Origin: Oceanispirochaeta sp.
GTDB taxonomy: Bacteria > Spirochaetota > Spirochaetia > DSM-2461
Length of the DNA: 64,000 nucleotides
NCBI GenBank assembly: GCA_963663385.2
Contig: CAXXXD010000001.1
Span: forward strand, 128,001-192,000
Direction: 5' to 3'
Shown here: positions 2,891 through 62,298 of the stretch, piece after piece
Numbering within the stretch: position 1 is the stretch's first letter
Layout: each line of letters starts with the position of its first letter
The notes under the pieces: model-generated
Told to the model about the DNA's origin: nothing
Database searches by the model: none
What the model saw: the letters and a program-made list of their open reading frames with translations, nothing else
Program-made: the position numbers and the translations under genes

Positions 2891-2910
2891 TAGAACTCCT
2901 TAGAAAGAAC

Positions 2911-2933: not shown

Positions 2934-2952
2934 TCTTCTGATACTGTTCGAT

Positions 2953-3906
2953 TTATTTAAAGAAATCCTTATCCGCAAGGATGAGAGGAGACTGAACCCA
3001 GCCGAGGTTCTCCCTTTCTCCGGCAATGATTTCAAATCCTGCATTAAAAGCAAGGACTGCCATTTCGGTGCCATCCATATGAACGGTAGCCAGCATTTTG
3101 TCATTAAGAATTAGATCCTTAACAGCCGGGATATTATCAAACCCTACAACCTGAACATCGCTGCGCCCTGCAGCTTCAAGAGCACGGACAACACCGAGAG
3201 CCATTGAGTCGTTGGCACACATAACCCCCTGAACATCCGGGTGTTTGGTCAGCAGATTTGTCATCAGGGTATTGGCTTCTTCCGCTTCCCAGTGTGCTGT
3301 ATTGGAGGCCAGGAGTTCCAGGCCGTGGGTTTCGATGGATTTCATAAATCCGTTTTTTCTCTGTTTGGCATTATCCGCCCCGGGATTCCCTTCGAGAATG
3401 AATACCTTACCGCCTTCTCCGATTGTTTCGCCCAGATAATTACCGACCATTTCGGCTCCGTCTGTATTATCGGGTCCGACGAACAGAAACTCTTCAGGAA
3501 GGCCGGCCGCCTTCAGTGCATCCTTGTCCAGGGTTACATCAAAATTGATAACCGTAACGCCTGCATCGATAGCCCTTTTAACAGGAGCGACCATACCGGC
3601 TGAGTCGGCAGGAGCCAGAACGATCAGATCAACACCCTGAGTAATCAGACTGTCTACAGCATTTACCTGTGTATCAAAGTCCGTTTCGGAATTCATCCCC
3701 ATTGTTATCAGTTTGAAAGAACCGTCCTCTTCAGCATAAGCTTTTGCGCCTTCATCCATAGCCATAAAAAATTCATTAGCCAGTGATTTCATAATCAGAC
3801 CGACGACCGGTCTGTCATCCTCCTTTTCCTGTTCTCCATTGGCAAAAACAGAAACGGGCATCAGAATTGCGAGTCCCACCAGAACAGCCAAAATTTGTTT
3901 CTTCAT
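2953..3906 (-). CDS. Ribose-type sugar ABC substrate-binding protein (RbsB family)
   Basis: Start chosen at MKKQILAV (ATG 3906, AAGGAG upstream). Signal peptide ending VFANG; motifs KSLANEFF, CANDSMALG and VVGFD. Confidence 0.9.
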   Translation of the reverse strand: MKKQILAVLVGLAILMPVSVFANGEQEKEDDRPVVGLIMKSLANEFFMAMDEGAKAYAEEDGSFKLITMGMNSETDFDTQVNAVDSLITQGVDLIVLAPADSAGMVAPVKRAIDAGVTVINFDVTLDKDALKAAGLPEEFLFVGPDNTDGAEMVGNYLGETIGEGGKVFILEGNPGADNAKQRKNGFMKSIETHGLELLASNTAHWEAEEANTLMTNLLTKHPDVQGVMCANDSMALGVVRALEAAGRSDVQVVGFDNIPAVKDLILNDKMLATVHMDGTEMAVLAFNAGFEIIAGERENLGWVQSPLILADKDFFK

Positions 3907-3952
3907 TAGATACTCCTTAATTTTCTCATACAGAGATGTATACCCGCTATAT

Positions 3953-3968
3953 TGCAAACCTTATGCCA
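3953..3968 (-). promoter_or_regulatory. Sigma54 (-24/-12) promoter for the ribose-type ABC operon
   Basis: Minus strand reads TGGCATAAGGTTTGCA, i.e. GG-N10-GC exactly, about 45 nt upstream of the SBP start and next to a sigma54 activator gene. Confidence 0.85.
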
Positions 3969-4096: not shown

Positions 4097-5944
4097 TCAG
4101 GCTACGGGAATCTTCAGCTCGAAGCGGCAACCGTCCTCAAACTGATTATCCAGGGAAATACTGCCGCCGTAACGATTCAGGATATTATAACAGAGAGACA
4201 GTCCCAACCCGTAATTCTGGTTTGTATTTTTTGAAGATTTGAAAGGAAGAAAAACATCCGTCGAATCGTCAAAGGGGACACCGGGTCCGTTGTCTTCAAA
4301 AAGGATAGAGGCATACTCCCGCCCCTCTTCCCGGCTGATGGAAATAGCGATGACACCGCCTTCCGACAGGACTTCAAAAGAGTTTTTAAACAGATTCAGA
4401 ATAACCTGCTTGAATTCGTTTCTGTTAAAAAGGACCTGAACAGGAACCTCCGAATCCTCCCGGATATGGATTTCAATGTGCTTCTGCTTTCCATTGAACC
4501 GGATCAGGTTCATAAGCTCACGGATTTCATCACTTAAAATAATCAGCTCTTTATTCTCTTTCTGGTTATTGGAAAAGGTGATCAGATTCCCTATGACCTG
4601 TGAGATATAATTGATCTGTTCAAAGAGATAATCAAACACCGCCTCCCGTTCATCCGGCTTTACCTTATTCATCCGGAAGCTCTCAAGATAATTGGAAATC
4701 ACTCCCAGGGGATTATTAATCTCATGAGCCACTCCCGCAGACAGGAGTCCCAGGGACGCCAGTTTCTCCGACAGAATGACCTGATCCCGTAACCGCTCCC
4801 GCTCGGTGATATCTTCAATAATAAAGAGGTTTCCAATCAGTAATGCCCCCTCGTAAATGGGGTATAGAACAATATTGGCCATATACATCCCCTTTCCTGT
4901 CTGAAGGGGAATATTGAACATGGAACGGATTTCGCCGGATGCAGCGGTTTCCTCCAGCAGTTCCGCCGGAACAGGGCTTCCCCCGAAAAGACTTTCGACT
5001 GTCAATTCGGTAAGACTGGTATTATCATCCAGGCAGAAGAACTCCCTGGCGCTGGCATTAACCGTTTTAATCCTGTGATCCGTTCCCAGTACAATCAGGC
5101 TGATGGGAAGCTGTTTAAGGATCACTTCGTTGTACTTGAAGAGATTGCCGAATTCGAGGGTGTGATCCTGTTGATCCTCCAGAGAGGAAAACTGTGTATA
5201 GGCCATTTTGATTAGGCTTATTTTATCCAGATCCTTTACATTTTCGGATAAAAGCAGCTTCCCCTTCCGGATAATGCTTACCCGATCGGCAATCATATAG
5301 AGATCGTCAATCCTGTGGGTAATAAAAAGGATGGCACACCCGGATTTTTTCAGGGCATTAAGGGCTTTGATTACCTTTTCCAGACCGTCGGCAGAAAGCT
5401 TTTCCAGGGCTTCATCCAGGATCAGAACCCTGGGAGGAGTGTACAGATTTTTTACAATACTGAGAAAGGCTTTTTCCGACAGGGGCAGATTCGAGACAGA
5501 ATCCCGGGGATTCAGATCAAACCCGTTCTCTTTTAGAAACATCGCGGTGAGGACGTCGACTTTTTTCTGACTGAATCCCCCGAAGCGGGATTGGAACCTT
5601 TTTTTATTGGCAATGAAGAGGTTTTCAGAAACCGTAAGGGCATCATTCAGCCGGATTTTCTGAAAAACCATTCTGATACCGGCATCTATTGTCTCCTTAT
5701 AAGACATTCTGGCATAAGGTTTATTCTGATAAAATACCGCTCCTTCATCGGGAGAGATCAGGTTGGCGACCATTTTGGCCAGGGAGGATTTTCCTGCACC
5801 GTGTTCCCCGACAATGGCATGGATCTCCCCCTCATGAATAGAAAGGTTAATACCGTCCAGAGCCTTGATACTCCCGTAACAGAGGGATACGTCACGCATT
5901 TCAAGGATACACTTCATATCAGTCGCCAAGTCCGGCAATATCAT
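4097..5944 (-). CDS. Fusion protein: ABC ATPase (CUT2 N-half-like) - PAS - HisKA - HATPase histidine kinase, with no TM segment
   Basis: GEHGAGKSS, VFQ (Q-loop), LILDE, ITHR; PAS-like segment (IKTVNASAREFF..IEDITER); H-box GVAHEINNPL, N-box NLFKNS, DNGPG and GLGLS. Alternative start ATG 5917. Confidence 0.9.
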   Translation of the reverse strand: MILPDLATDMKCILEMRDVSLCYGSIKALDGINLSIHEGEIHAIVGEHGAGKSSLAKMVANLISPDEGAVFYQNKPYARMSYKETIDAGIRMVFQKIRLNDALTVSENLFIANKKRFQSRFGGFSQKKVDVLTAMFLKENGFDLNPRDSVSNLPLSEKAFLSIVKNLYTPPRVLILDEALEKLSADGLEKVIKALNALKKSGCAILFITHRIDDLYMIADRVSIIRKGKLLLSENVKDLDKISLIKMAYTQFSSLEDQQDHTLEFGNLFKYNEVILKQLPISLIVLGTDHRIKTVNASAREFFCLDDNTSLTELTVESLFGGSPVPAELLEETAASGEIRSMFNIPLQTGKGMYMANIVLYPIYEGALLIGNLFIIEDITERERLRDQVILSEKLASLGLLSAGVAHEINNPLGVISNYLESFRMNKVKPDEREAVFDYLFEQINYISQVIGNLITFSNNQKENKELIILSDEIRELMNLIRFNGKQKHIEIHIREDSEVPVQVLFNRNEFKQVILNLFKNSFEVLSEGGVIAISISREEGREYASILFEDNGPGVPFDDSTDVFLPFKSSKNTNQNYGLGLSLCYNILNRYGGSISLDNQFEDGCRFELKIPVA

Positions 5945-7235
5945 ACTTTTTCATCCTGCTGTACAGGGTCGTTCGGCTGATATTCAGGGATTCGGCAACC
6001 TTCTTCTTGTTGAAATTTGCCTTTAAGAGCTCCCGCAGGATTGTCTCCTTCTCTGAGCGTTCCAGGGGTGTTTCATCCCGCCCCTCTTCTTCAATCACTT
6101 TTTGAAACTTCGTGGGAAGGCATTCTATTCCGATCGTGCCGTTTGACGATATGGCTGAGGCATAGTTCATTGTGTTCTTCAACTCCCTGATATTGCCGGG
6201 CCAGGAATACCGTAAAAAGAGTTCAAGCACCTCATCCTTCAATACACAGGACGCCGTTCCATTCTCCATGGCGTACTCGTCCATAAAATGTTCAGCCAGA
6301 AGCGGGATATCGGTAATCCTTTTCTTGAGAGGAGGGACTGTCAGGATGGCCGCATTCAAGCGGTAGTAAAGGTCCTCCCGGAATCGCCCGAGAGCAATAA
6401 GATCTTCCAGTTTTTTATTTGTAGCTGAAATGAGTTTCACATCGACCTTGATCAGGTCCTTACCGCCCAGGCGATACAGCTCCCTGTTCTGAAGAACCCG
6501 GAGAACTTTGGCCTGCACTTCCATGGACATATCCCCGATTTCATCCAGAAAGAGGGTCCCGCCGCTGGCTCTTTCAAAAACACCTTTATAACTTGCATGG
6601 GCTCCCGTATAAGCGCCCTTTTCATGGCCGAACAGTTCATTATCCAGAAGGTTGTCGGGAAACGCCGCACAATTCACTTTTATAAAAGGCTTATCGGCCC
6701 GGTTCCCGCTGGAAAAAATGAAATCCGCAAACAGCTCCTTTCCTGTTCCGTTTTCACCATACAGCAGAATGGGAAGATTCCCCGAAGCCAGTTTGAGTAT
6801 TGTTGCCTTCAACTCCTCAACACCCGTATCCCGGCTTACAATCCGGGAATCCGGAAAACAGTCAGGCTGTCCGGCACTGTCGATGACGTTGGCAATTTTC
6901 TCATAGAGGATTTTGTATTTCACAGGCTTAAGAAGATAATCGACCGCTCCATACTTCATGGATTCAACTGCGGTTTCTATAGTGCCGAACCCGGTCAGCA
7001 TAATAACCGGTACGGCAGGATACTCCTTTTTCAGCATTTTCAATACTGACAGACCGGATTCTGATCCCAGTTTCATATCCAGCAGAATCACAGAGATTCC
7101 TCCCTGACTCAGTACGGGAAGAGCATCCGCACTGCTCAGGGCATAGAGGATTTCAAGAGTCTCATCCCCCAGCATACGGGAAAGGCTCATACAGAATTGT
7201 TCATTATCATCAATTATCAGAATACTGTGTTGCAT
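5919..7235 (-). CDS. NtrC/AtoC-family sigma54-dependent response regulator (REC-AAA+-Fis HTH)
   Basis: ILIIDD, LLDMKL, LLKP; GENGTGKE, GAYTGA, FLDEIGDM, FREDLYYRL, WPGNIRELKN; ISRTTLYSRMKKY. Confidence 0.95.
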   Translation of the reverse strand: MQHSILIIDDNEQFCMSLSRMLGDETLEILYALSSADALPVLSQGGISVILLDMKLGSESGLSVLKMLKKEYPAVPVIMLTGFGTIETAVESMKYGAVDYLLKPVKYKILYEKIANVIDSAGQPDCFPDSRIVSRDTGVEELKATILKLASGNLPILLYGENGTGKELFADFIFSSGNRADKPFIKVNCAAFPDNLLDNELFGHEKGAYTGAHASYKGVFERASGGTLFLDEIGDMSMEVQAKVLRVLQNRELYRLGGKDLIKVDVKLISATNKKLEDLIALGRFREDLYYRLNAAILTVPPLKKRITDIPLLAEHFMDEYAMENGTASCVLKDEVLELFLRYSWPGNIRELKNTMNYASAISSNGTIGIECLPTKFQKVIEEEGRDETPLERSEKETILRELLKANFNKKKVAESLNISRTTLYSRMKKYDIAGLGD

Positions 7236-50675: not shown

Positions 50676-52814
50676 GTGAAAAAAGGAATCATTCTTCTGA
50701 TACTTCTATCCGCGGCCCTGAGCACTGTTAGTGCGGATGTTATGGAAGTTCGGCGGTTCGGCCTGTTTATTGGAGCAAATAACGGAGGAGATACCCGGCA
50801 GAAGCTGCTTTACGCGGGCGATGATGCCACAGCTATGTCCAACACAATGCGGGATATTGGTGGTATTGATCCTCCCGATAACATACTCCTTATTGATCCT
50901 GATTCAAATGAAATCCTTGAAAAGCTGCGGGAGATGAGCCGGGAAATAAACCGTGTAGAGACCCTGGTCCGGAGAACAGAGGTAATGTTTTACTACTCGG
51001 GGCATTCCGATGAAAACGGGATTCTCCTGTCTGACAATCAGATCCGGTACAAAACCATTCGGGATATGCTGGAAGCAAGCGGAGCAGATGTGGTAATTGC
51101 TGTTCTGGACTCCTGCTCATCCGGAGCCTTTACCAGAACCAAGGGCGGTCAGAGGCGATCCCCTTTTCTTATTGATGAATCCTCGACTATGGAGGGGCAT
51201 GCCTTTCTGACATCCAGCTCGGAAACGGAACTATCCCAGGAGTCGGACCGGATTGGCGCATCATTCTTTACCCATTACCTGATTACAGGGTTGAGGGGCG
51301 CCGCAGACAACACAAGGGATGGACGGGTTACACTGAATGAAGTGTATCAGCATACCTACCAGGAGACTCTTTCCAAAACAGAATCCACCATCGGCGGTCC
51401 CCAGCACCCGGCCTACGAAATCCAGCTGACCGGAACGGGAGACCTTGTTCTGACAGATTTGACTGTCCCCACATCCGCTCTTCAACTCTCGGGAGAACTG
51501 GCCGGACGATTCTCTGTCCGGAACAGACAGGATCGCCTTGTAGCTGAATTTACAAAACCCGAAGGAGATACACTTAAACTGGCCCTTCCCTCCGGCGCCT
51601 ATACAATCCGTCTGGATGACGACCTGGAAACCTATGGGAATTCGGATGATGTCAAAACAGCACGGATAGAATTGAGCCGTAATGCCCAGCTTTACCTGAC
51701 AAAAAGGGACTTCAGTTCCAACGGTCTGGAGTTTACCCGCTTCCGCGGTAATCTGAAACAGGGAGACAAAGATGAAAAATATGTTTTCGCCCTTTTACCG
51801 GGATTAAACTACCCGTCCCTCAATGCAGATGATCTGGTCCGGATTCAGGCGGGGCTGCTGGGTTCCATTGCTCCACAGCTATCGGGGATTCAGGCCTCCT
51901 GGATTTTTAATATAACGGGACAGGAAAGCGAAGGAATACAGGCCAGTGAAATATTCAATCTGGCAGAGGATGATTTTCAGGGCATACAGGCATCGGGAGT
52001 TTTCAATATAACGGAAGGTCAGATGGAGGGGCTCCAGGCTTCCGGAGTTTTCAATATATCAGACAGCAGTATGTCGGGGATTCAATCATCCGGGGTATTC
52101 AATATTGCGGGAGACTATTTCTCCGGCGTCCAGACAGCCGGGCTCTTCAATATCGTGGACAGACCGGCCACAGGGATACAGGCGGCCGGGTTATTCAATA
52201 TCGCAGGAGAATTGAAAGGGATTCAGGCAGCCAGCCTGTTCAACTATGGATCCTATATGCACGGATTACAGGCGTCACTGCTGAATGTCACAGGAACCAT
52301 GCGGGGGCTGCAGATAGGCTTGCTGAATATAAACCGGGAAGTATACGGACTGCCGATAGGATTTGTCAGCTTGTCCCGGAATGGGATTGTGGATACAGGC
52401 GTATGGTATGAGTACGAAGACGATCACAGGGTCTATACCTCCTTTCAGTCGGGAACCAATTATTTCTATACACTTTACTATTTCGGAAACAAACAAAAGG
52501 ACTATCTGGAAAGTCAGGAAGATATGGTCTGGGGATTCCACCTGGGGAGCCGGATCAGCTTCGGCCCTTTTGATATAGACCTGGACGGCGGAGCCAAACA
52601 GTGTTACAAGGATCTGAGTGAGGATCATAATTTTTCAGTCCCCTCGGCGAGGGTTATTATTGCTTTAAAAGGTTTTGGTCTTTTCTGGGGAGTGACTATG
52701 GATATTCAGTATCCCGGAGCAACATCCGCCCTCTACACGGGAGAAAAATTCAGTTTTCTGGGAAACAGGGATTACCCGGCTTACTACCGATATGTATTCG
52801 GCTTCAGGATTTAG
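50676..52814 (+). CDS. Exported caspase-family (peptidase C14) protein with C-terminal 16-aa surface repeats
   Basis: GTG start after GAGGA; signal peptide; FYYSGHSD (His) and VLDSCSSG (Cys) dyad; SQESD..SFFTHYLITGLRGAAD..DGRVTLNEVY; GIQxSGVFNI repeats. Confidence 0.88.
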   Translation: MKKGIILLILLSAALSTVSADVMEVRRFGLFIGANNGGDTRQKLLYAGDDATAMSNTMRDIGGIDPPDNILLIDPDSNEILEKLREMSREINRVETLVRRTEVMFYYSGHSDENGILLSDNQIRYKTIRDMLEASGADVVIAVLDSCSSGAFTRTKGGQRRSPFLIDESSTMEGHAFLTSSSETELSQESDRIGASFFTHYLITGLRGAADNTRDGRVTLNEVYQHTYQETLSKTESTIGGPQHPAYEIQLTGTGDLVLTDLTVPTSALQLSGELAGRFSVRNRQDRLVAEFTKPEGDTLKLALPSGAYTIRLDDDLETYGNSDDVKTARIELSRNAQLYLTKRDFSSNGLEFTRFRGNLKQGDKDEKYVFALLPGLNYPSLNADDLVRIQAGLLGSIAPQLSGIQASWIFNITGQESEGIQASEIFNLAEDDFQGIQASGVFNITEGQMEGLQASGVFNISDSSMSGIQSSGVFNIAGDYFSGVQTAGLFNIVDRPATGIQAAGLFNIAGELKGIQAASLFNYGSYMHGLQASLLNVTGTMRGLQIGLLNINREVYGLPIGFVSLSRNGIVDTGVWYEYEDDHRVYTSFQSGTNYFYTLYYFGNKQKDYLESQEDMVWGFHLGSRISFGPFDIDLDGGAKQCYKDLSEDHNFSVPSARVIIALKGFGLFWGVTMDIQYPGATSALYTGEKFSFLGNRDYPAYYRYVFGFRI
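51880..52370 (+). repeat. Intragenic tandem repeats (about 48 nt / 16 aa, shortening towards the end), LA_2272-like
   Basis: About 11 units: GIQASWIFNI, GIQASEIFNL, GIQASGVFNI, GLQASGVFNI, GIQSSGVFNI, GVQTAGLFNI, GIQAAGLFNI and others. Confidence 0.85.
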
Positions 52815-52955
52815 TCCTTCGACTACGCTCAGGACACTGAAGAAGTAATATTTAATTTCTTTTCTCCGGACCCTTCTCAGGAGGAGTATTATTTCCAGTT
52901 ACATCTCCCCTGAGGAGTGCCTGGAAATGAACATTTCAGAACAATCACAATAATA

Positions 52956-54776
52956 CTAATCAACAAGGGGAAACGCCATTTTCACAATACACCCCATTTT
53001 ATCTTTTCTGTTATTTATTGAAATTGTCCCCTGATACTTTTTGATAATCCCGTAAACAAGGGACAGACCTAATCCGGTATTTATGCCATTATAGGATTTT
53101 GTTGAGTAGAATGGGGTAAAATAGTCTTTACTGATGTCTATACCCGCTCCAGTATCTTCTATCTGTATTTCCAGAAAGTTCTCATTATTCACAGATATTC
53201 TCTCAATTGTAATGTCAATATCGCCATCTTTCTGAATTGACTCGAAACTGTTCTTGATTATATTCAGCAAAGCCTGCTTGAATTCGTTTTCATTAATATA
53301 AACGACATTGTTCTTATTAAGCTCAGTCAGATTGATGCTGATATTCTTCAGTTTCGCATTAACCCTCAGCAGATCTATCATTTCCTTTACCAGATCATTG
53401 ATGCTGGCATTTTCCGGAGCGACCTTTTCCAGATTGGAAAAATTCTGGAGATTACTTACTATTTTATTAATATATCTAACCTGCTTTGATAATTGATCAA
53501 CAATTTTTATGAGATCAGGTTCATTGTATCTGAATCTGATGTTTGTAAGGTAATTACTGATTATCTCAAGGGGATTATTTATCTCGTGAGCAACCCCGGC
53601 AGAGAGCAGGCCGACAGACGACAATTTCTCCGATAGATGATTGTTCTGCTGCAGGGAATCGTATTCTGTAATATCATAAAATATCAGCATTGATCCGATC
53701 TTGTTATTACCGTCATAAATCGGAGAGTAGTGTACGTTGTAAATGCCTTTCGTATCATTGATATTCAGTGATAAATGATAAATTGTATTTTCATCGTTTT
53801 CTGACAGCTGATCCAGTATTATGTTTTTTGTAGTAATAATTGTTTTGTCAAAGATACACTCTCCCGGTTTCTCAATGTAATCGCCTATATCGATATGAAA
53901 ACTATCAATGAAATATTTGTTAGCGAGCTTCAATATTCCATTATTGTTAAGAATGATTAAATTAACCGGAAGATTTTCGAGTATGGCTTCATTGTATTTT
54001 ATCAAATGATAGAAAGAGTCAGAGGAAGTCTGAATCACAGGCGTTTCCGATAACTGGGTATAAGCCATTCTGATTATCTGCATTCTGCCGATGCTTTGAA
54101 CTGACTCCGTAAGGATATTCGTCCCATATCGTATTATTGATACTCTATCAGATATATCGAATGCCCAGTCGATTTTATGAGTCATGAGAATGATACAGCA
54201 ACCGCCATCTCTTAATTTCCTTAGAATGCTTTTCAACTTGGAATAATACTCAACGGACAACTTATCCAGAGATTCATCCAGAATCAGGACCCTTGGATTA
54301 TTTTTAATTTTTGCCAGTATGGAAACAAGGGCCCGCTCGGATAAAGTCAGGTTTTTAGTCACTTTATCAACATCAAGATCGAAACCGAACCCCTTCAGAT
54401 ATGTATCTGCTGTTTCATGGAGTCTTCTTTTCAGGGAAAGAGAAAAAAACGGTGACGTGTTATCACAGAAAAAGAGATTTTCCGCAACCGTAAAATATGG
54501 ATTCAGCATTAATTGCTGATGAACAAATTGAATACCGGTCTGTTGTGCAACTTTCGTCTTAATAAAGCTATAATCCGTATTATCAACTGAGACGGTACCG
54601 GATTCCGGTCTTACCAATCCGCACAGAATCAGGCCGATACTGGATTTCCCGGCACCGTGTTCCCCGATCAGAGCATGTATGCTGCTGCTTGTAAAACTGA
54701 TATTTATATCATTTAGAGCTCTGACTTTATTAAAATTAAGCCGTACGTTTTTTATATCGACAATTTTATCAGACAT
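52956..54776 (-). CDS. Second ABC ATPase - PAS - HisKA - HATPase fusion histidine kinase, with no TM segment
   Basis: GEHGAGKSS, VHQQ, LILDES, MTHK; PAS-like segment (LKLANKYF..FYDITE); GVAHEINNPL, NIIKNS, DTGAG, PFYSTK and TGLGLS. Confidence 0.9.
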   Translation of the reverse strand: MSDKIVDIKNVRLNFNKVRALNDINISFTSSSIHALIGEHGAGKSSIGLILCGLVRPESGTVSVDNTDYSFIKTKVAQQTGIQFVHQQLMLNPYFTVAENLFFCDNTSPFFSLSLKRRLHETADTYLKGFGFDLDVDKVTKNLTLSERALVSILAKIKNNPRVLILDESLDKLSVEYYSKLKSILRKLRDGGCCIILMTHKIDWAFDISDRVSIIRYGTNILTESVQSIGRMQIIRMAYTQLSETPVIQTSSDSFYHLIKYNEAILENLPVNLIILNNNGILKLANKYFIDSFHIDIGDYIEKPGECIFDKTIITTKNIILDQLSENDENTIYHLSLNINDTKGIYNVHYSPIYDGNNKIGSMLIFYDITEYDSLQQNNHLSEKLSSVGLLSAGVAHEINNPLEIISNYLTNIRFRYNEPDLIKIVDQLSKQVRYINKIVSNLQNFSNLEKVAPENASINDLVKEMIDLLRVNAKLKNISINLTELNKNNVVYINENEFKQALLNIIKNSFESIQKDGDIDITIERISVNNENFLEIQIEDTGAGIDISKDYFTPFYSTKSYNGINTGLGLSLVYGIIKKYQGTISINNRKDKMGCIVKMAFPLVD

Positions 54777-54777
54777 C

Positions 54778-56130
54778 CTACAATATTCCGTATTTTTTCA
54801 ATTTGAGATAAAGAGTATTACGGCTCATCTGTAAATATTTGGCTGTTTCCGATTTGTTATTACCGGTTTTCAATAAAACTTTCCTGATCAGTTCTTTTTC
54901 TCTCTGCTGAACAATACTCAATGAATCATTATCATTTGATCCGCTTATTTCAAAACTCGGGGGCAGATCCTCCATTCTGATTTCATTGTTCTGGGAAATC
55001 GTTGCCGCATATAAAAGAGCATTCTTAAGCTCGCGTATGTTACCAGGCCAGTGATAGTTCATAAATACATGTTTGACCTGATCAGATAGAGATTTCCTGG
55101 GGTTTTTTGCATTGACGCTTATTTCATTTAGCAGAACATCTGTCAGTGCATCGAAATCTTCCCTGCGATTCCTTAAGGGCGGGATTTTCAGCAGACCGCC
55201 GTTCAACCGGTAAAACAGATCTTCCCGGAAAGAGCCTTCCTCAACCATATCCGACAGGTTTTTATTGGTAGATGCTATAAATCTGACATCAATTTTTCTG
55301 ACTTCCTTTCCGCCGATTCGTCTCACTTCCTGATTTTGAATCACTCTCAGGATCTTGGCCTGAAGAGTTGTGGGCATATCTCCAATCTCATCCAGAAGCA
55401 GCGTGCCATTGTTCGCCTGTTCAAACACACCGAGATACTCGGAGGAAGCCCCTGTATAGGCGCCTTTTTCATGCCCGAATAATTCATTGTCCAGAAGACT
55501 CTCCGGAAAGGCTGCACAATTAATTTTTATAAAATTTTCGGAAACCCTATTCGAATTCCTGTAAATGTAATCCGCCAGCAATTCTTTGCCGGTTCCATTT
55601 TCACCTATGATCAGGATTGAGATGTCTGATTCTGCCAGTTTTCTGGCCCGATTTAATAGACTGCTGAACTCTGCATTTTCGCTGCTTAATATATTGCATT
55701 CTTTTTTCAGCCTGTCTTTTAGTTTTTCATTTTCTTTTTTAACTCTTAAATTTTCAGTTGCCGTATCGATTCTTGTACACAGGGTATTGAAATCTATGGG
55801 TTTTTTTACAAAATCGAAAGCTCCCAGCTTCATTGCATTGACTGCCGCTTCAATCGTTGCATACCCGGTTATCATAATCACGGGAATAGGGGGATATTCC
55901 TTTTTTATTTTTTCAAGAGTTTCGACTCCGTTCTCGTTCCCTAATCGTACATCAAGCAAAATAATATTAATATCTTCTTTTTTCAGGACAGAAAAAGCAT
56001 CTTTTGTATTTTTGGCATAAAACAGATAATGCCCGACAAAAGAAAAGTTATCTTTCAGTACCTTATATAACTGTTGATTGTCATCTATGAATAAAATATC
56101 CAAATTCAAGTCTCCTGTAAGCCAAAGCAC
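54778..56130 (-). CDS. NtrC-family sigma54-dependent response regulator (true start uncertain, probably TTG near 56103-56109)
   Basis: FIDDN, LLDVRL, VKKP; GENGTGKE, GAYTGA, LLDEIGDM, FREDLFYRL, WPGNIRELKN; MSRNTLYLKLKKY. Confidence 0.95.
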   Translation of the reverse strand: MLWLTGDLNLDILFIDDNQQLYKVLKDNFSFVGHYLFYAKNTKDAFSVLKKEDINIILLDVRLGNENGVETLEKIKKEYPPIPVIMITGYATIEAAVNAMKLGAFDFVKKPIDFNTLCTRIDTATENLRVKKENEKLKDRLKKECNILSSENAEFSSLLNRARKLAESDISILIIGENGTGKELLADYIYRNSNRVSENFIKINCAAFPESLLDNELFGHEKGAYTGASSEYLGVFEQANNGTLLLDEIGDMPTTLQAKILRVIQNQEVRRIGGKEVRKIDVRFIASTNKNLSDMVEEGSFREDLFYRLNGGLLKIPPLRNRREDFDALTDVLLNEISVNAKNPRKSLSDQVKHVFMNYHWPGNIRELKNALLYAATISQNNEIRMEDLPPSFEISGSNDNDSLSIVQQREKELIRKVLLKTGNNKSETAKYLQMSRNTLYLKLKKYGIL

Positions 56131-56154
56131 AGTGTTATATGATTTAGTACAACC

Positions 56155-56182
56155 TGAACAGACACTGTCCTAATTTAGGACA
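56155..56182. promoter_or_regulatory. Putative upstream activator sequence
   Basis: Perfect palindrome TGTCCTAA-T-TTAGGACA (56166-56182) preceded by TGAACA, about 90-105 bp upstream of the -24 element. Confidence 0.65.
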
Positions 56183-56269
56183 ATGATAATACAACAATTA
56201 TAAACCCGCAACGATAAAAATCTGTTTAACTTACTGCTATATTAGCATTAATAAGAATCACCCTGATCC

Positions 56270-56285
56270 TGGTATGGTAATTGCA
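56270..56285 (+). promoter_or_regulatory. Sigma54 (-24/-12) promoter of the BMP-type ABC operon
   Basis: TGGTATGGTAATTGCA, i.e. GG-N10-GC, 43 nt upstream of ATG 56329. Confidence 0.8.
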
Positions 56286-56328
56286 TTGAATTATAACCAG
56301 AACGTATAATCATAACAAAGGAGAGAAA

Positions 56329-57342
56329 ATGAAAAAACTGTTATCCCTATTATTAATCAGCTGTCTGGGATTCGCTTCTGTTTTTGCCTCCGGGGCAAAT
56401 GATGCTCAGGCCGATTCCGGGGAAAAGAGTATCGGTGATCTGAAGATAGTACTGATTCTTCCGGGACCGATTAATGATCAGTCATGGAATGCGACAAACT
56501 ATGCCGGTCTTGTCGCATGTAATGAACAGCTTGGAACGAAAATGGAATATGTTGAGAATGTTCAGGCATCGGATTATGAATCGACATTCAGAAATTACAG
56601 CGAAAGAGGCTATAACCTGATTATGGCAGCGGGAACGCAATTTGATGATGCTGCCAATAAAGTAGCCGCTGACTATTCTGATACAACATTCTGCGTTGTT
56701 AATGGATTCAGAGCAGATTATCCCAATGTATCTCCTATTTTCCCCAAGGAATTCGAAGCGAGCTATATCGCCTCGTTAATTGCGGGAGAGGTGACAGAAA
56801 ACGGAAAGTTTGCCACTATCGGCGGTTTTCCGAATGAGGCGATGGAAAAGCTTCTGGATGTTTATGAAAAAGTTTCCGTCAGTATAGCAAAAGAAAGAGG
56901 GATCTCCGGTTCCAGTGCTAACAGATCGTATGCCAATAGCTGGGATGATATTGCCCTCGGAAAACAGATGGCTGAAACAATGATTGACAATGGTGCAGAT
57001 ACACTGTTTGTATACGCCAATCAGGTAGGGTTAGGAGCTATTCAGGCCGCAAAAGAGAAAGGCAAGAAATTTGTCGGATTTTCCAGTAATCAAAATGAAA
57101 TCGCCCCGGGAACAGTAGTTGCCTCGGTCATTTTTGATTTTCAGATTTTCTACACGTGGGCTGTCGAAAAATACTACAACGGAACTCTGACAGGCGGAAA
57201 AGTACATGAAGCCGGAATCAGGGAAGGGATCTTCAGACCCGTTTACCCGAGCGCATTTTCAGAGGATATAAAATCAAAAGTTGAAGCCGGTATGACAAAG
57301 GCAATCAACGGAGAAGTTGATTTCCAGTCAATGTTCAAGTAA
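56329..57342 (+). CDS. BMP/PnrA-family (nucleoside-type) ABC substrate-binding protein
   Basis: Signal ending VFASG; GPINDQSWN, GYNLI, SWDD..G..MIDNGAD and GLGAIQAA. Confidence 0.9.
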   Translation: MKKLLSLLLISCLGFASVFASGANDAQADSGEKSIGDLKIVLILPGPINDQSWNATNYAGLVACNEQLGTKMEYVENVQASDYESTFRNYSERGYNLIMAAGTQFDDAANKVAADYSDTTFCVVNGFRADYPNVSPIFPKEFEASYIASLIAGEVTENGKFATIGGFPNEAMEKLLDVYEKVSVSIAKERGISGSSANRSYANSWDDIALGKQMAETMIDNGADTLFVYANQVGLGAIQAAKEKGKKFVGFSSNQNEIAPGTVVASVIFDFQIFYTWAVEKYYNGTLTGGKVHEAGIREGIFRPVYPSAFSEDIKSKVEAGMTKAINGEVDFQSMFK

Positions 57343-57351
57343 TGGCAGATA

Positions 57352-57387
57352 ACACAATTCCCTGATATTGATCAGGGTATTGTGTCT
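57352..57387 (+). terminator. Long stem-loop after the BMP gene
   Basis: ACACAATtCCCTGAT-attg-ATCAGGGtATTGTGT followed by CTTTT. Confidence 0.65.
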
Positions 57388-57519
57388 TTTATCGGGTAGA
57401 CGCAAACCACAGGCAGCAGGATTACAAATAATTAATACATTTCATTCTATGTGGAAAAATCAGAGCATAAATTGAAGGATTTGCCGGAAATTATCAGTAA
57501 TTCCTCTAGGAACAGCATT

Positions 57520-59037
57520 ATGAATAAACCTTTTTTTGAACTGAAAAATATATCAAAATATTTTGCCAAAGTAATTGCAAACAAGGATGTTTCCTTATCC
57601 ATTAATCGAGGCGAAGTCCTGGCTCTCCTGGGAGAAAACGGGGCAGGAAAGAGTACATGCATGAAAATCCTTTACGGGCTTTATCAGGCTGACGAAGGAG
57701 AGATTTTCAAAGAAGGTGAAAGGATAATAATCAAATCACCCAAAGATGCAATGCAGCATAGGATTTCCATGATTCAGCAGCATTTCTCTCTCGTTTCAGC
57801 GCATACCGTTACGGAGAATATTATCCTCGGAAATGTAAAAGGGAAAATAAACTGGATTGAGGAAGAAAGAAAGATTCAGAAATTGGCTGATCAGTACGGA
57901 TTTGCTGTTGACTCCCGGAAAAAGATAAAAGATCTGACTGTAGGAGAGCAGCAGAAAGTTGAAATATTAAAGGCATTATACTTGGACGCGAATTTGCTGA
58001 TAATGGATGAGCCCACAGCAGTGTTAACTCCTCAGGAGATAGATATATTAATGGATTTCGTTAAGGGTTACTCCAAACGGGGCAATGCCGTTATTTTCAT
58101 AACCCATAAGCTTAAGGAAGTAATGAGTGTAGCAAACAGAATTATTGTAATGAGATCCGGAATGATACATGGGAATGTATTAAAAGAGCAGACAAATGAA
58201 ATTGAATTATCAAAAATGATGATTGAACATACAATTAAAGAATTAGAGAAAGTCAACGATGATAATGATGTGAAAGATGTCAGCCTTTCCGTCAGGAATT
58301 TAACCGTTAGGCAGAAGAACGAGATCCCCCTGTTAAATGATGTATCTTTTAATATTCACAGGGGTGAAATCTTCGGTATTGCCGGAGTTTCAGGCAATGG
58401 ACAACAGGAACTCTGCATGGCAATCTGCGGAGCCGTAAAACCGGTTGGTGGATCAATCATCCTTGAAAATGAGGACATAACCGACTTTTCGATCAGGAAG
58501 AGAATCTCTATGGGAATGGGATATGTCCCGTCGGACAGACATCGGTATGGAATGCTTATGGACATGAGCCTGTCCGAAAACATCCTGCTTAAAACCAGTT
58601 ATTCCAAAAAGTGGAAAAAGAATGGATTGATTGATAAAAAGAAACTGACCGATACTACAAATCAGATATTAGAGAAATTCAATGTGAAAGCTCCGGGACA
58701 TTACTCCCTGGCAAAAGAATTGTCCGGTGGAAATCAGCAGAAGGTCATTGTCGGCAGAGAAGTCGAATTCTGCGGAGATTTCATTATATTCGATCAGCCT
58801 ACCAGAGGTTTGGATTTAGGCGCAATCAACAATGTCCACTCGGCCATATTAAAAGAGAAGCAGAAAAACAAGGCTGTTATGCTGATCTCGACAGAGTTGT
58901 CTGAAATTTTTGCCTTATCCGACAGGGTTGCTGTTTTCTATAAGGGCGAAATACAGGGTATATATAAAACATCCGAACTCAGCAGTGAAAAAATCGGGTT
59001 GCTTATGGCTGGATATAAGCATCAGGAGGCAATCTAA
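57520..59037 (+). CDS. CUT2 nucleoside-type ABC transporter ATP-binding protein
   Basis: VIANKDV, GENGAGKST, LTVGEQQKVEILKAL, GVSGNGQQEL, LSGGNQQK and QPTRGLD. Confidence 0.93.
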   Translation: MNKPFFELKNISKYFAKVIANKDVSLSINRGEVLALLGENGAGKSTCMKILYGLYQADEGEIFKEGERIIIKSPKDAMQHRISMIQQHFSLVSAHTVTENIILGNVKGKINWIEEERKIQKLADQYGFAVDSRKKIKDLTVGEQQKVEILKALYLDANLLIMDEPTAVLTPQEIDILMDFVKGYSKRGNAVIFITHKLKEVMSVANRIIVMRSGMIHGNVLKEQTNEIELSKMMIEHTIKELEKVNDDNDVKDVSLSVRNLTVRQKNEIPLLNDVSFNIHRGEIFGIAGVSGNGQQELCMAICGAVKPVGGSIILENEDITDFSIRKRISMGMGYVPSDRHRYGMLMDMSLSENILLKTSYSKKWKKNGLIDKKKLTDTTNQILEKFNVKAPGHYSLAKELSGGNQQKVIVGREVEFCGDFIIFDQPTRGLDLGAINNVHSAILKEKQKNKAVMLISTELSEIFALSDRVAVFYKGEIQGIYKTSELSSEKIGLLMAGYKHQEAI

Positions 59038-60086
59038 TGGATAAAAAAAACCGGGATATTCTTATTACCAGCTTCCTGGCAATTCTGTTGGGACTGATTC
59101 TCAGCGGTATTATGGTTCTTTTTCTGAAAAAGAATCCCATATATGTTTTCAGCATTCTCTTCTCATCCATGTTTCGGGATGGCTATACAATCGGAGAAAT
59201 CTTTGTAAAGGCGACACCCCTGATTTTTACGGCGCTGGCTTTTGCTTTTACGTTTAAAGCGAATCTTTTCAATATTGGAGCCCAGGGGCAATTCTATATG
59301 GGATCGATAACGGCTGTGACTGTATCGTTATTTATACCGTCTCCCCTTGCCATTCCACTGGCTATTTTCTTCTCTTTTCTGATCAGCGGGATATGGGGAG
59401 GCTTTATTGGATTCTTTAAAGCCAGATTCAAAGCGAATGAATTTCTCATCAGTATGATGAGCACTTATGTCGCCCTGAATTTTATGAACTATTTACTGAG
59501 AACAGTCCTGATGGAAAGCAAAGGCGAATACCCTCAAACCGATTCGCTGGTAAAAAGTACCTGGCTATTTAAAATTGTTCCGCATACAAGACTTCACTTC
59601 GGTTTTGTTCTGGCGATTCTTGCTGCAGTAATTGTCTGGCTCATACTCTACAGAACGACTTTGGGATTCAGGATCAGAGCTGTGGGACAAAACCAGGAAG
59701 CTGCAAGGATGAGCGGCGTCAATCCTGAAAGGATTTATATTTTCACCTTTTTTGTCAGCGGAGGACTGGCGGGTCTTGCCGGAGTCACAGAGGTCAATGG
59801 GGTTCAGCATATGCTGCTTCAGGGTTTTAACCCTTCAATTGGAGCCCTTGGCATAGGAATCGCTATTTTAGCCAATGCCAATCCCATAGGGATCATCTTC
59901 GCTTCAATCCTGTTCGGAGCCTTGCATGTAGGAGGTACTATCATGGGCCAGCTGTCAGGAGTGCCTTCCAGTATTATAAATTTAATGGAAGGGTTTGTTA
60001 TGGTATTTGTCATCATCTCTTATTTTGTGCGGAAGAGATGGGAGTTGAACAGAGAAAAAAAACTTCTTAAGGAAGGGATCTACTGA
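59037..60086 (+). CDS. Nucleoside-type ABC permease 1
   Basis: ATPLIFTAL, FNIGAQGQ and GFRIRAVGQNQEAARMSG. Confidence 0.92.
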   Translation: MDKKNRDILITSFLAILLGLILSGIMVLFLKKNPIYVFSILFSSMFRDGYTIGEIFVKATPLIFTALAFAFTFKANLFNIGAQGQFYMGSITAVTVSLFIPSPLAIPLAIFFSFLISGIWGGFIGFFKARFKANEFLISMMSTYVALNFMNYLLRTVLMESKGEYPQTDSLVKSTWLFKIVPHTRLHFGFVLAILAAVIVWLILYRTTLGFRIRAVGQNQEAARMSGVNPERIYIFTFFVSGGLAGLAGVTEVNGVQHMLLQGFNPSIGALGIGIAILANANPIGIIFASILFGALHVGGTIMGQLSGVPSSIINLMEGFVMVFVIISYFVRKRWELNREKKLLKEGIY

Positions 60087-61000
60087 TGATTGTGAGTTTA
60101 TTATCCAGAGCAATGATGATGAGTACGCCGTTATTATTCGGATCCTTATCGGAAGTCTTTTCCGAAAGAACCGGCGTGATGGTTACTGCAATCGAGGGGA
60201 TCTTCCTGATGGGAGCCTGGGCGGGCTTTACTGCAACTTATTTAACCGGGAGTTTAGGCCTGGGAATACTTTTTTCAGCACTTTCCGGTTTATTAGTGGC
60301 CATCCTCTATGCCTTTATTGTTGTAACTTTGAAACAGCATCAAATCGTAACAGGAACAGCTATAAATATTCTGATCGTCGGTCTATGTTCATTTCTGCAG
60401 AGAGTGGTTTTCGGGGTTCCTCTATCGCCATTAACTGTCGAACCCTTAAAAAAACATGCAATCCCGCTGCTTTCAGAAATACCTCTATTAGGTCCGATAT
60501 TCTTCAATCAGAATATATTAACATATTCAATCTATGCACTTGTTCCCCTGGGATTTTTTATTCTCTATAAAACATCTCTCGGACTGGTAATCCGGTCTAC
60601 AGGTGAAAATCCGGAAGCCGTCGATGTATCGGGCATTAATGTATCAAAAGTCAGATTCTACACTGTTGCCGTTTCCGGCATAATGTGCGGTATTGCAGGA
60701 GCTTTCTACTCTATAGGCTATCTGGGAATGTTTACCACAAATATGATCGGCGGGAGAGGCTGGATCGCCTTTGCAATCTGCTTTCTGGGGAACTGGAATC
60801 CGGTAGGAGCCTTCATTGGAACGGTTATCTTTGGATTAGCCGAAGCATTTGCCATTTTAATGCAATCGAATTCAGCGACTATGCTGCCCAACGAACTGTT
60901 TATATCATTGCCGTATATACTGACGATAATACTGACAATAAGCAGGAAATCATTTAATGTTCCTTCCAGACTGGGAACGGCTTATATGAAAGAGAATTAA
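60086..61000 (+). CDS. Nucleoside-type ABC permease 2
   Basis: SERTGV..IEG, RSTGENPEAVDVSGINV, GGRGWIA and LPYILT. Confidence 0.92.
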   Translation: MIVSLLSRAMMMSTPLLFGSLSEVFSERTGVMVTAIEGIFLMGAWAGFTATYLTGSLGLGILFSALSGLLVAILYAFIVVTLKQHQIVTGTAINILIVGLCSFLQRVVFGVPLSPLTVEPLKKHAIPLLSEIPLLGPIFFNQNILTYSIYALVPLGFFILYKTSLGLVIRSTGENPEAVDVSGINVSKVRFYTVAVSGIMCGIAGAFYSIGYLGMFTTNMIGGRGWIAFAICFLGNWNPVGAFIGTVIFGLAEAFAILMQSNSATMLPNELFISLPYILTIILTISRKSFNVPSRLGTAYMKEN

Positions 61001-61010
61001 CAGGAAACAT

Positions 61011-61052
61011 CCCGGGCCTGGAATATTGTGATTTCACCAGACCCGGGTTTTT
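61011..61052. terminator. Probable bidirectional terminator between convergent genes
   Basis: CCCGGGcCTGG...CCAGaCCCGGG followed by a T run. Confidence 0.55.
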
Positions 61053-62298
61053 AACGCCGCAGGTTATTCAGCCTCTTCTGGGCTTCATCCAGGTAGGCAA
61101 GATCAACAGCTCCCTGTTTCAGGACAAGTTCCTGGAAAGCGTCGTCATAGACCTGTTTCACCTCACCCCAGGAAACATAGTCACTTCCGGGAACGCCGGA
61201 AACTATCCCGGTTTTCAGCACTTCGATTCCTTTGGCAATTATTTCGTCTTCTACAGAATCACCGAGTTTCTCCAGAGATTCGTTTATGGGAGGAATAAAC
61301 CCTCCCGTTCCTTTGGAAATGACAACGGCCCGTTCGGGCTGGGTCATGAATTCAATAAATTTAATTGCCAGGTCCTTATGGGGAGCGCCGTTCATAACAG
61401 CAAATCCACTGGCGCCGGCAATTGTCCCGATCCCTTTAGGACCTCTGGGAGCCGGAGCCAGAATAAAATCATCCGGAGCCTCCCGGTAAACCTCTCCCAC
61501 CCGGACCATATGGGCAACAGTCATCCAGATATCGCCGTTTCTCAGGGGGGGAGTCATATTGTCAAACTCATTGATTTTCGGGCTGTAGGCATCCCTCATC
61601 CGGACCATCTGCTCCCATCCCTTAACGGCTTCTGAAGAGTTTATGACTGGAAAATCCCCGCCATAGGACAGAAAAACGCCGCCGTACATATATATCAGGG
61701 ATTTCTGTGGAACGCCGGTTACACCGGCTTTGCCCTCCCCTTCTCCCCGGGAAACATTAATCGCCCACTGAACATAGTCCTCCCAGGAGAGATTCTGGGG
61801 ATCCGCACCCTCCGGTTTGTAAGGAAGGGCTTTTTTATTAATCAGCGTCAGATACACATCGCCCCCGATAGGAGCAAAATATGTTTTCCCTCCCGAAGAG
61901 ATCCTGAAACAGAACGCATTGGAAAAGGTACGGTCCGTCCACTCGTCAACCGGGAGAGGTATAACATACTCACTGCGGATCCAGTCAGACATGATCCCGT
62001 CGTGTACAATAACAACGTCTGTTGTCACCTTACCGGACTCCTTCTGGAACTGCGCTTTTTTCAAAAGGGAGTCATCATCCATAGTCTCGAACTTAACAAG
62101 ACAGTTATTGGCTTTCTCGAATTCCGGAAAAATCTCCTCCAGAAGGAATTTCTGTTCCTCGGGAGGACTGTAGAGTCTGGATTCCACAATCAGTTCGACA
62201 GGATCCGGTTTACCCTCGGTTTTTACTTTTTTCTGACAGGAGATCATAGCAATTACGGGTATTGATACCAGTGCAATTATTAAAAATCGATTCTTCAT
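61051..62298 (-). CDS. Orphan CUT1-type solute-binding lipoprotein
   Basis: Lipobox-like ..IAMISC; FEKANNCLV, SWEDYVQWA, PAPRGPKG and LAIKFIEFM. Confidence 0.82.
   Translation of the reverse strand: MKNRFLIIALVSIPVIAMISCQKKVKTEGKPDPVELIVESRLYSPPEEQKFLLEEIFPEFEKANNCLVKFETMDDDSLLKKAQFQKESGKVTTDVVIVHDGIMSDWIRSEYVIPLPVDEWTDRTFSNAFCFRISSGGKTYFAPIGGDVYLTLINKKALPYKPEGADPQNLSWEDYVQWAINVSRGEGEGKAGVTGVPQKSLIYMYGGVFLSYGGDFPVINSSEAVKGWEQMVRMRDAYSPKINEFDNMTPPLRNGDIWMTVAHMVRVGEVYREAPDDFILAPAPRGPKGIGTIAGASGFAVMNGAPHKDLAIKFIEFMTQPERAVVISKGTGGFIPPINESLEKLGDSVEDEIIAKGIEVLKTGIVSGVPGSDYVSWGEVKQVYDDAFQELVLKQGAVDLAYLDEAQKRLNNLRR

Follow-up and report, generated by a model that had tools for sequence, protein, structure and literature searches.

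A soluble histidine kinase with a CUT2-type ATPase domain, encoded divergently from a Bmp-type importer in Oceanispirochaeta sp.

The stretch of DNA considered here (the window) comprises 64,000 nt of Oceanispirochaeta sp. (assembly GCA_963663385.2, contig CAXXXD010000001.1, positions 128,001-192,000 of the forward strand). Towards its right end lies a six-gene cassette, in which a response regulator (RR) and a soluble histidine kinase (HK) with an N-terminal ATP-binding cassette (ABC) ATPase domain are encoded divergently from the four genes of a CUT2 importer, which specify a Bmp-type substrate-binding protein, a tandem ATPase and permeases A and B (Table 1). This layout had been described in an initial annotation of the DNA, and both the open reading frame (ORF) coordinates and the Pfam matches agree with it. 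The regulator gene stops 1 nt ahead of the kinase start, and its own start codon is uncertain, being either the GTG at 56130 or one a few codons downstream. Judging from the genes and the sites between them, the kinase-regulator pair likely switches on the divergent Bmp-type importer via sigma-54. The cassette is referred to as copy 2, to distinguish it from a related set of genes, copy 1, near the left end of the window.

Table 1. Genes and sequence elements of copy 2 and copy 1, in window coordinates.
Feature	Position	Strand	Evidence
Stretch without DNA counterpart in congeners (six-gene cassette and short edges)	52703..61066	.	blastn, GC content
Soluble histidine kinase, 606 aa	52956..54776	-	Pfam ABC_tran 21-169, PAS_4 266-371, HisKA 390-450, HATPase_c 496-604
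NtrC/AtoC-type response regulator	54778..56130	-	Pfam Response_reg, Sigma54_activat, HTH_8
Candidate enhancer block, 38 nt	56146..56183	+	inverted repeat, conservation
Sigma-54-type -24/-12 element TGGTATGGTAATTGCA, 43 nt ahead of the Bmp ATG	56270..56285	+	pattern match, conservation
Bmp/PnrA-like substrate-binding protein, 337 aa	56329..57342	+	Pfam PF02608, E 4.5e-48
Importer tandem (two-domain) ABC ATPase, 528 aa	57451..59037	+	Pfam ABC_tran, two stretches
Permease A, 349 aa	59037..60086	+	Pfam BPD_transp_2; coupling loop GQNQEAARMSGVN by alignment
Permease B, 304 aa	60086..61000	+	Pfam BPD_transp_2; coupling loop GENPEAVDVSGIN by alignment
GC-rich hairpin (CCCGGG...CCCGGG) then TTTTT, right after permease B	61011..61052	+	read by eye
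Copy-1 importer: Peripla_BP_4 protein (2953-3957), tandem ATPase (1382-2890), single permease gene (355-1389)	355..3957	-	
Copy-1 -24/-12 element TGGCATAAGGTTTGCA, ahead of the ribose-type binding-protein gene	3953..3968	-	pattern match
Copy-1 kinase, 615 aa	4097..5944	-	Pfam, translation, alignment with copy 2
Copy-1 sigma-54 response regulator	5919..7235	-	Pfam, translation

The ABC ATPase domain of the kinase occupies residues 1-239 (nt 54060-54776) and is followed by a flexible linker (240-261), a PAS domain (262-368), a dimerisation and histidine-phosphotransfer (DHp) or HisKA domain (370-445, with H397; a long hairpin in the model) and a catalytic domain (455-604). Its Pfam HisKA and HATPase_c matches, together with an H-box histidine in the DHp helix, are those of a class I (HisKA) kinase. 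Residues H397, N505/N509, D541-G543-G545, F553/F556 and G568/G570 are invariant in the family alignment, and we take all but the first to be the N, G1, F and G2 boxes. A hydropathy scan of the kinase gave no segment of transmembrane grade (Kyte-Doolittle maximum 1.14). An AlphaFold2 model, based on a 115-sequence alignment, has a mean predicted local distance difference test score (pLDDT) of 78, with ~88-92 in the ATPase domain and <50 in the linker. By Foldseek the N-terminus is similar to LptB-like ATPase domains (TMt 0.85), and the remainder to PAS/LOV kinases, e.g. 4gcz.

The regulator has the receiver, the AAA+ domain with Walker A and the Fis-type helix-turn-helix of NtrC-type enhancer-binding regulators. 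Its translation contains GENGTGKE and GAYTGA, the latter being a Phe-to-Tyr variant of GAFTGA that is found in both copies, and contact of this loop with sigma-54 is predicted. No NCBIfam model reaches its cut-off for the kinase (AtoS 191 against a cut-off of 646; YtfR 149 against 850), and for the regulator the best model is AtoC, at 400 bits against a cut-off of 714. The pair thus resembles AtoS/AtoC and NtrB/NtrC in its PAS-HisKA-HATPase_c core, its receiver-AAA+-HTH_8 regulator and its layout of enhancer plus -24/-12 element. It differs from these in having an ABC ATPase domain where they have a membrane or other N-terminal sensor, in having CUT2 importers as targets, and in scores that lie far below the cut-offs.

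The initial annotation had treated copies 1 and 2 as diverged paralogues with shared motifs, all of which are present in the copy-2 translations. In the kinase these are GEHGAGKSS (38-46), LTLSERAL (143-150), DESLDKL (167-173), the junction IRMAYTQ (235-241) and KYNEAIL (260-266), and the H-box LLSAGVAHEINNPL (390-403); the copy-1 kinase (4097-5944) has matching variants. When the two kinases are aligned, they have the same domain order and 40% identity over 612 columns (E 1e-130), and the two regulators are 45% identical. By these sequence comparisons, the likeness of the two kinase-regulator pairs far exceeds chance. The copies are tied to different CUT2 subfamilies, ribose-type for copy 1 and Bmp-type for copy 2, as had been proposed, and the associated distinction between a homodimeric permease (copy 1, one gene) and a heterodimeric one (copy 2, two genes) holds as far as gene content goes.

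The ATPase domain of the kinase is closest to the N-terminal halves (N-halves) of CUT2 tandem ATPases such as RbsA, YtfR, AraG, XylG and MglA, with which the first 240 residues align end to end. It scores 149 bits to YtfR, and ~200 bits with a profile of N-halves as against ~80 with the C-terminal halves (C-halves). Unlike the CUT2 ATPases, it is a single domain with no C-half, and its Walker A motif reads GEHGAGKSS, not GENGAGKST. It has also lost the signature motif and the P-T after Walker B, and has gained a new conserved C-terminal helix (MAYTQ) that leads into the PAS domain.

Motifs were compared across 115 kinases, 43 N-halves and 43 C-halves. The N-halves have a catalytic side (GENGAGKST, Q, DE, H) and a weak signature (L-S-V-A/G-x-Q-Q); the C-halves have the canonical LSGGNQQK and a decayed catalytic side, with Lys changed to Arg in 72%, Gln to Glu in 74% and His present in 11%. 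The degenerate signature, which had been listed as a deviation specific to the kinases, is therefore already in part a trait of CUT2 N-halves, although the kinases have lost more of it. In the kinase family the Walker A Lys, the Q-loop Gln and the Walker B Asp-Glu are each 100% conserved and the H-loop His 92%, and copy 2 has all of these residues (K44, Q87, D167-E168, H200). Since the residues that decayed in the C-halves are kept in the kinases, the domain is under selection for nucleotide handling and is not a relic.

This conservation bears on the suggestion that the ATPase domain is an inert remnant without function, carried by an ordinary AtoS/AtoC-like pair that lies near ABC importers by chance. 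The best scores of the kinase core and the regulator are indeed against AtoS and AtoC, and a degenerate signature motif could be taken in the same way. However, the catalytic residues are 92-100% conserved in 115 members from several phyla, the junction motifs are at least 90% conserved, and the domains form a monophyletic clade of uniform length in a near-invariant context, which makes this suggestion hardly credible.

Column by column, conservation in the kinase domain correlates at r 0.63 with that in bona fide transporter N-halves, and for the Q-loop/groove segment the constraint is the same in the two groups (z 0.18 and 0.18). In ABC importers this segment contacts the coupling helix. The positions that have changed relative to the N-halves are the dimer-interface signature and the residues past Walker B, and the newly conserved ones cluster in the C-terminal helix (M237, A238, Y239, Q241) running into the PAS cap (Y261-L266). 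We read these sequence patterns as the retention of nucleotide handling and of a putative transporter-facing surface, the loss of the canonical dimer interface and the gain of a new, presumptive output junction. The nearest kinases without an ATPase domain (L107 1495-3621; L111 391-3916) align from residue 236 on. They have a membrane sensor and HAMP at the place of the ATPase domain, which therefore holds the input position. In L111 the kinase gene precedes the regulator gene, the opposite order to that in the ATPase-domain family.

The kinase belongs to a family of its own. A protein search found >100 full-length relatives with the same Pfam set, of which 112 proteins of 590-640 aa were gathered, from sources including Sphaerochaetaceae, Pleomorphochaeta, Marispirochaeta, Desulfomarina and KSB3/Vecturithrix; their NCBI name is 'ATP-binding cassette domain-containing protein' and nothing more. 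When the junction (aa 195-300) was searched against 1.84 billion cluster representatives (50% clustering), there were 149 matches, 90 of them at E <=1e-10. The architecture is uniform, since 105 of the 149 are 585-650 aa long, and it consists of a single CUT2 N-half-type domain, PAS, HisKA and HATPase_c in ~600 aa with no transmembrane segment. All 115 aligned sequences have H40, and conservation is at least 90% at Y239, Q241 and Y261-L266. In a wider set of 105 full-length representatives the His-containing Walker A is found in 62 and the H-box (AHEINNPL) in 83. The genome itself (5.3 Mb) encodes five full-length paralogues and 43 tandem CUT2 ATPases.

Phylogenetic trees point to one origin of the ATPase domains. 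In a FastTree analysis of 133 domains (33 kinase domains, 43 N-halves, 43 C-halves and 14 single-domain ATPases) all kinase domains fall on one side of a branch with support 86. For IQ-TREE 54 rows were used, with six long-branch tandem ATPases left out: the 5 kinases of this genome and 14 of 28 sampled family members, 5 cognate and 14 randomly picked N-halves, 10 C-halves and 6 single-domain ATPases. Here the kinase ATPase domains, copy 2 included, form one clade (ultrafast bootstrap 99, SH-aLRT 94, 100% of 200 bootstrap trees), nested among the CUT2 N-halves, with the C-halves apart at 100/99. A tree of this kind had been proposed as a check on whether the nucleotide-binding domains (NBDs) of the kinases form one clade, and it bears this out (99/94). 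Together with the uniform length, the conserved motifs and the >100 relatives, the single clade also upholds the earlier view of a selected, modular family as opposed to a chance fusion.

No kinase domain pairs with the N-half of its neighbouring importer ATPase in the IQ-TREE analysis. An origin of the copy-2 domain from the adjoining Bmp-type ATPase was ruled out (approximately unbiased (AU) test): forcing the copy-2 clade together with Bmp-type N-halves is 74.5 log-likelihood units worse (p-AU 0.0025), for a group that was named after the tree had been seen. As the kinases form one clade that is not derived from the local ATPase, the same lineage has become wired to two CUT2 subfamilies. 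The trees are best read as one fusion event that joined a ribose-type N-half to an AtoS-like PAS kinase; the product would then have spread and re-associated with other CUT2 subfamilies.

Gene neighbourhoods were compared at 24 loci with 25 kinases, of which 5 loci are in this genome, 6 in metagenome-assembled genomes (one of a KSB3 bacterium) and 13 in Spirochaetota genomes. Of the 25 kinases, 24 have a regulator gene immediately upstream in the same orientation, and the remaining one is cut by a contig end; CUT2 importer genes occur within 10 kb at 23 of the 24 loci. In this genome all five paralogues have both the regulator directly upstream and an adjacent CUT2 importer. No other class of transporter was found as a partner among the loci examined. 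As to how widespread the family is, full-length matches were found in at least about 12 of 300 sampled Spirochaetota genomes (four candidates scored per genome), a contig pattern scan that was dominated by the H-box pattern gave 6 full-length members among 80 loci, and a metagenome scan gave a single family locus.

Further evidence for a regulatory link to the importer comes from the intergenic region. A perfect palindrome, TGTCCTAA-T-TTAGGACA, lies at 56166-56182, ~100 nt upstream of the -24/-12 element, in a block that is likely, from its sequence and position, to be the enhancer bound by the regulator. The four orthologous copy-2 intergenic regions have all diverged save for the 38-nt block, which is invariant or nearly so, the TGG/TGC cores and the ribosome-binding site. 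All five modules of the genome have their own, differing inverted repeat ~100-150 nt upstream (TGGACA-N16-TGTCCA in copy 1), four of which are short-spacer palindromes; differing repeats are as expected if each module has a separate enhancer-binding regulator. The GG/GC cores at -24/-12 spacing and the upstream activator site, in a genome that encodes rpoN, are those of a sigma-54 promoter, from which transcription is predicted.

Matches to the -24/-12 pattern of at least 9/11 occur upstream of 16 of 26 module binding-protein genes, compared with 118 of 3000 random 310-nt windows, and in this genome ahead of the binding-protein gene in all five modules. In copy 1 the listed TTG start at 3957 lies inside the element, and the true start of the binding protein must therefore be further downstream. 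The window as a whole has no excess of -24/-12-like sites (18, with 22.6 expected by chance), and for such sites it is just position and conservation that carry weight. On the opposite strand a sigma-70-like TTGTTA-17-TATAAT (56290-56318) faces the regulator-kinase genes, and could possibly be a constitutive promoter of the pair; counts of sigma-70-like and terminator-like sites within the cassette are not above chance. An Rfam search over 52000-62000, at E up to 0.1, gave zero matches, and therefore no riboswitch accounts for the regulation.

How the kinase is informed about the importer can be set out as a model. The reading that we prefer, to which we give a probability of roughly 0.45, is that the input is the fused ATPase domain docking onto the membrane subunits of the importer. 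The two ATPase domains of a kinase dimer, on ~20-residue flexible tethers, would bind ATP and take their seats on the permease pair by way of its generic coupling loops. The loaded binding protein on docking, or else the transport cycle, would then shift how the two domains sit together, and the shift would set kinase activity through the junction (IRMAYTQ ... KYNEAIL) into PAS and DHp. The regulator, once phosphorylated, would bind the palindrome and turn on sigma-54-dependent transcription of the importer genes (Bmp, ATPase and permeases). The coupling loop, G-x-N-x-E-A-x-R-x-S-G-I/V-N, is common to ribose-type and both Bmp-type permeases, and one kinase-domain lineage could therefore seat on either type. 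Because the loop is generic, the kinase and regulator could be a plug-and-play unit. In its fuller form, towards which we are tentative and inclined slightly against, the kinase would be a detachable extra CUT2 subunit whose dimer takes the ATPase seat on some permease dimers and turns binding-protein docking into phosphorylation, with the membrane domain as receptor. The pair would have been re-wired between ribose-type and Bmp-type importers, and would travel horizontally as a sense-and-import cassette.

Several observations weigh against docking. The signature is lost (LTLSER in copy 2, L-n-L-S-D/E-R as the family consensus), and after Walker B the family has A/S-L-E/D-K-L-S (ESLDKLS in copy 2) in place of P-T-S-A-L. 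The kinase thus lacks the LSGGQ signature and SALD-type D-loop of a head-to-tail ATP sandwich, and a canonical closed sandwich of two kinase domains is therefore doubtful. The AlphaFold2 model shows no fixed contact between the ATPase domain and PAS (predicted template modelling score 0.44, linker pLDDT <50). Each importer seen has its own complete ATPase, with which the kinase would therefore have to compete for the seat. One locus (L130; G143, 7662-16130) has no importer within 9 kb, and 10 of the 26 binding-protein genes lack a good -24/-12 match in the 310 nt scanned. The copy-2 domain shows no convergence on Bmp-type ATPase residues, with ~3 of 37 differing columns toward these and ~6 away. 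A generic loop, in a genome with 43 tandem CUT2 ATPases, also leaves the choice of importer by each of the five kinases unexplained.

Tests of co-evolution count on the same side. The mirror-tree analysis covered 22 modules. It excluded L015 and L130, with two candidate importers and none, respectively, L159, whose contig is too short, L135 and L136, whose kinases are <590 aa, L131, which lacks a tandem ATPase, and L026, which lacks a permease. Distances between kinase ATPase domains correlate at r 0.91 with those of the regulator, 0.85 with the kinase core and 0.39 with the permease, and the partial correlation with the permease given the core is 0.21, where p 0.025 overstates the case because related loci are not independent. 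By comparison, the importer's own ATPase correlates with the permease at r 0.73 (N-half) and 0.90 (C-half). The proposal that each NBD co-evolved with its own permease has therefore found a weak signal at most. The numbers show, for these sequence distances, a modular re-association of the regulatory pair, with a faint domain-specific link to the permease at most.

An alternative is that the kinase never touches the importer and senses in the cytoplasm, with PAS binding the imported substrate or a metabolite and the ATPase domain acting as an ATP-dependent dimerisation device or an energy-status gate. The costly importer would then be induced only with substrate inside and ATP available. A soluble kinase with a regular PAS fold and conserved nucleotide-handling residues would suit this, as would an ATPase domain that co-varies with kinase and regulator and not with the permease, importers that all retain their own ATPase, and the L130 pair, which lies beside catabolic genes and no importer. 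Even so, we consider cytoplasmic sensing rather unlikely. It leaves unexplained why the input is constantly of the CUT2 N-half type and the partner a CUT2 importer at 23 of 24 loci, and the Q-loop/groove is as constrained as in real transporter subunits. Furthermore, it is PAS that tracks the permease least (r 0.21; partial r given the core -0.17), so that nothing ties PAS to substrate class, and two domains without a signature would be unlikely to form an ATP sandwich.

A third possibility is that the kinase domain is directed at the importer ATPase, either pairing with it, e.g. with the C-half that holds the sole canonical LSGGNQQK, or competing for the N-half seat, and so reads flux. The motifs are complementary in this respect, with a catalytic side and no signature in the kinase, and a signature and decayed catalytic side in the C-halves, and the kinase domain correlates with the C-half (r 0.41) at least as well as with the permease (0.39). 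Yet the C-half is covalently bound to its own N-half in tandem ATPases, none of 75 single-domain ORFs in the genome is C-half-like, and the importers at L131 and L136 use canonical single-domain ATPases, so that we regard sensing of this kind as improbable. The L131 (5703-6500) and L136 (2623-3411, 5908-6753) ATPases are 262-281 aa long with LSGGQ or SGGE. A variant in which the kinase domain completes a free C-half-type ATPase was also rejected, given the 0/75 ORFs and these canonical ATPases.

In the current view, two-component kinases sense by means of ligand-binding domains located in the membrane, the periplasm or the cytoplasm. If docking onto the importer is true, the motor domain of an ABC transporter as input would be a different principle, in which a kinase reads a transporter from the inside, and the system would offer a compact, covalently linked model of how transport activity leads to gene control, a matter still under study in the Bce, Pst/PhoU/PhoR and MalK/MalT systems. 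A full-text literature search gave, within the portions of papers it returned, no paper on a histidine kinase with an ABC ATPase input domain. What is new here is the single-origin test, the asymmetric-motif logic, the Bmp-wired six-gene cassette, the conserved enhancer/promoter footprint and the negative co-evolution result.

Several known systems link an ABC transporter to gene expression. Bce-type kinases are intramembrane-sensing and have transmembrane helices; BceS touches the permease within the membrane, the transporter is an exporter-like pump of the FtsX type whose permease has a large extracellular domain, and the regulator is of the OmpR type. In the Bce-type modules of Firmicutes (BceAB, BceS/BceR; bioRxiv 10.1101/2020.02.28.969956, PMC9169098), an HK is signalled through an ABC transporter encoded by neighbouring genes and controls expression of that transporter, which is the likeness to the present locus. 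The kinase here is unlike Bce in being soluble, without a transmembrane segment and with a fused ATPase domain; its partner is a binding-protein-dependent CUT2 importer with BPD_transp_2 permeases, and its regulator is of the sigma-54 type.

In phosphate signalling the Pst relay consists of a separate adaptor, PhoU, and the ATPase of the transporter, PstB, and PhoR is membrane-anchored. The parallel with PstSCAB-PhoU-PhoR (PMC12976172) is that the state of an importer is relayed cytoplasmically to a PAS-containing HK governing uptake genes. The cassette differs in having no adaptor gene (0 of its 6 genes is PhoU-like by Pfam), in a soluble kinase and in an ATPase domain that is within the kinase polypeptide. 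In the MalK-MalT system of E. coli, the importer ATPase MalK also regulates MalT, linking transport to gene expression. MalK is a working ATPase that sequesters MalT via a C-terminal regulatory domain, with no phosphorelay and no fusion. The cassette would be like MalK-MalT in tying an importer-type ATPase to transcriptional control of its own importer, and unlike it in the fusion and the phosphorelay.

The locus is a good test object, as it is self-contained and has a mapped enhancer-like site and promoter, with four more paralogues and 43 CUT2 importers in the same genome, which allows direct questions about specificity and cross-talk. It further suggests that a single transfer can bring in sensing, regulation and uptake together. 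By sequence comparison copy 2 is an acquired, self-contained six-gene cassette, present in none of the 10 congeners searched. Its guanine-plus-cytosine (GC) content is 0.397, compared with 0.481 in the left flank, 0.459 in the right flank, 0.465 in the genome and 0.456-0.478 in the copy-1 genes, in agreement with the initial impression of DNA more AT-rich than its flanks. Along the sequence GC is 0.33-0.45 within 52700-61100 and 0.49-0.52 outside. The blastn matches to two congeners, G303 and G307, end on the left at 52702 and 52715 and restart on the right at 61067 and 61124, respectively. The genes flanking the cassette (for a caspase-domain protein and an SBP_bac_8 protein) are 66-70% identical in these two genomes, and lie ~1.4 kb apart there as against 8.2 kb here.

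Orthologues are rare. In the 10 same-genus genomes no counterpart exceeds 42% identity, and among other genomes of the class, at E <=1e-170, orthologues were found in 3 of 400 (three candidates scored per genome). One, in another genus of the same family (G325), is an orthologue at 87% with a local GC of 0.35; the others, at 74% (G616) and 72% (G648), are in other families. Copy-2 orthologues were also looked for in family f16, where 17 genomes yielded none. Three distant orthologous loci (L138, L162, L163) have all six genes in the same order at 72-88% identity, with the permeases at 85-88%, Bmp at 83-84%, the ATPase at 77-80%, and regulator and kinase at 72-74%. The flanks have no direct, inverted or terminal repeats of note, and Pfam found no integrase or transposase domain in the six genes and three neighbouring ORFs on each side.

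The importer itself, with a Bmp protein, one tandem ATPase and two BPD_transp_2 permeases, is of the CUT2/Bmp (PnrA-like) kind; its genes score below the cut-offs of their closest NCBIfam models, a putative B6 importer set. The substrate, going solely by the PnrA-like family name, is probably a nucleoside or a related compound. Both halves of the tandem ATPase branch with the second Bmp-type ATPase of the genome (C1:237195-238742), whose importer has no kinase-regulator module. Only five importers have such a module in this genome of 43 tandem CUT2 ATPases.

The hairpin after permease B is likely a terminator ending the importer operon, and it was not flagged in a terminator scan because its loop exceeds the length allowed there. 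Between the Bmp and ATPase genes (57360-57377) there is a perfect 7-bp hairpin (CCCTGAT ATTG ATCAGGG), which may be an attenuator or a processing site yielding surplus binding protein.

Some loci elsewhere have variations on the theme. In L036 (4956-11806) two modules lie back to back, each facing its own importer, and in L138 another kinase-regulator pair, distantly related (24% identity), adjoins the same Bmp operon at its far end (40-2701 and 7674-10833). After the L130 pair come a LacI-type regulator gene and araB/araD/araA-like genes; this is the sole locus without a nearby importer.

At the position of the cassette in G303 (L157 2666-3981), and at the same place in G307, there are two small paralogous ORFs of 224 and 214 aa with signal-peptide-like N-termini, which were either replaced by the cassette or inserted in the congeners. 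To the left of the cassette (49859-52814) the window encodes a DUF4384 protein (270 aa) and a 739-aa caspase-domain (Peptidase_C14) protein. The caspase-domain gene is kept in the congeners, where the match is interrupted by a single internal stop, TAG in G303 and TAA in G307.

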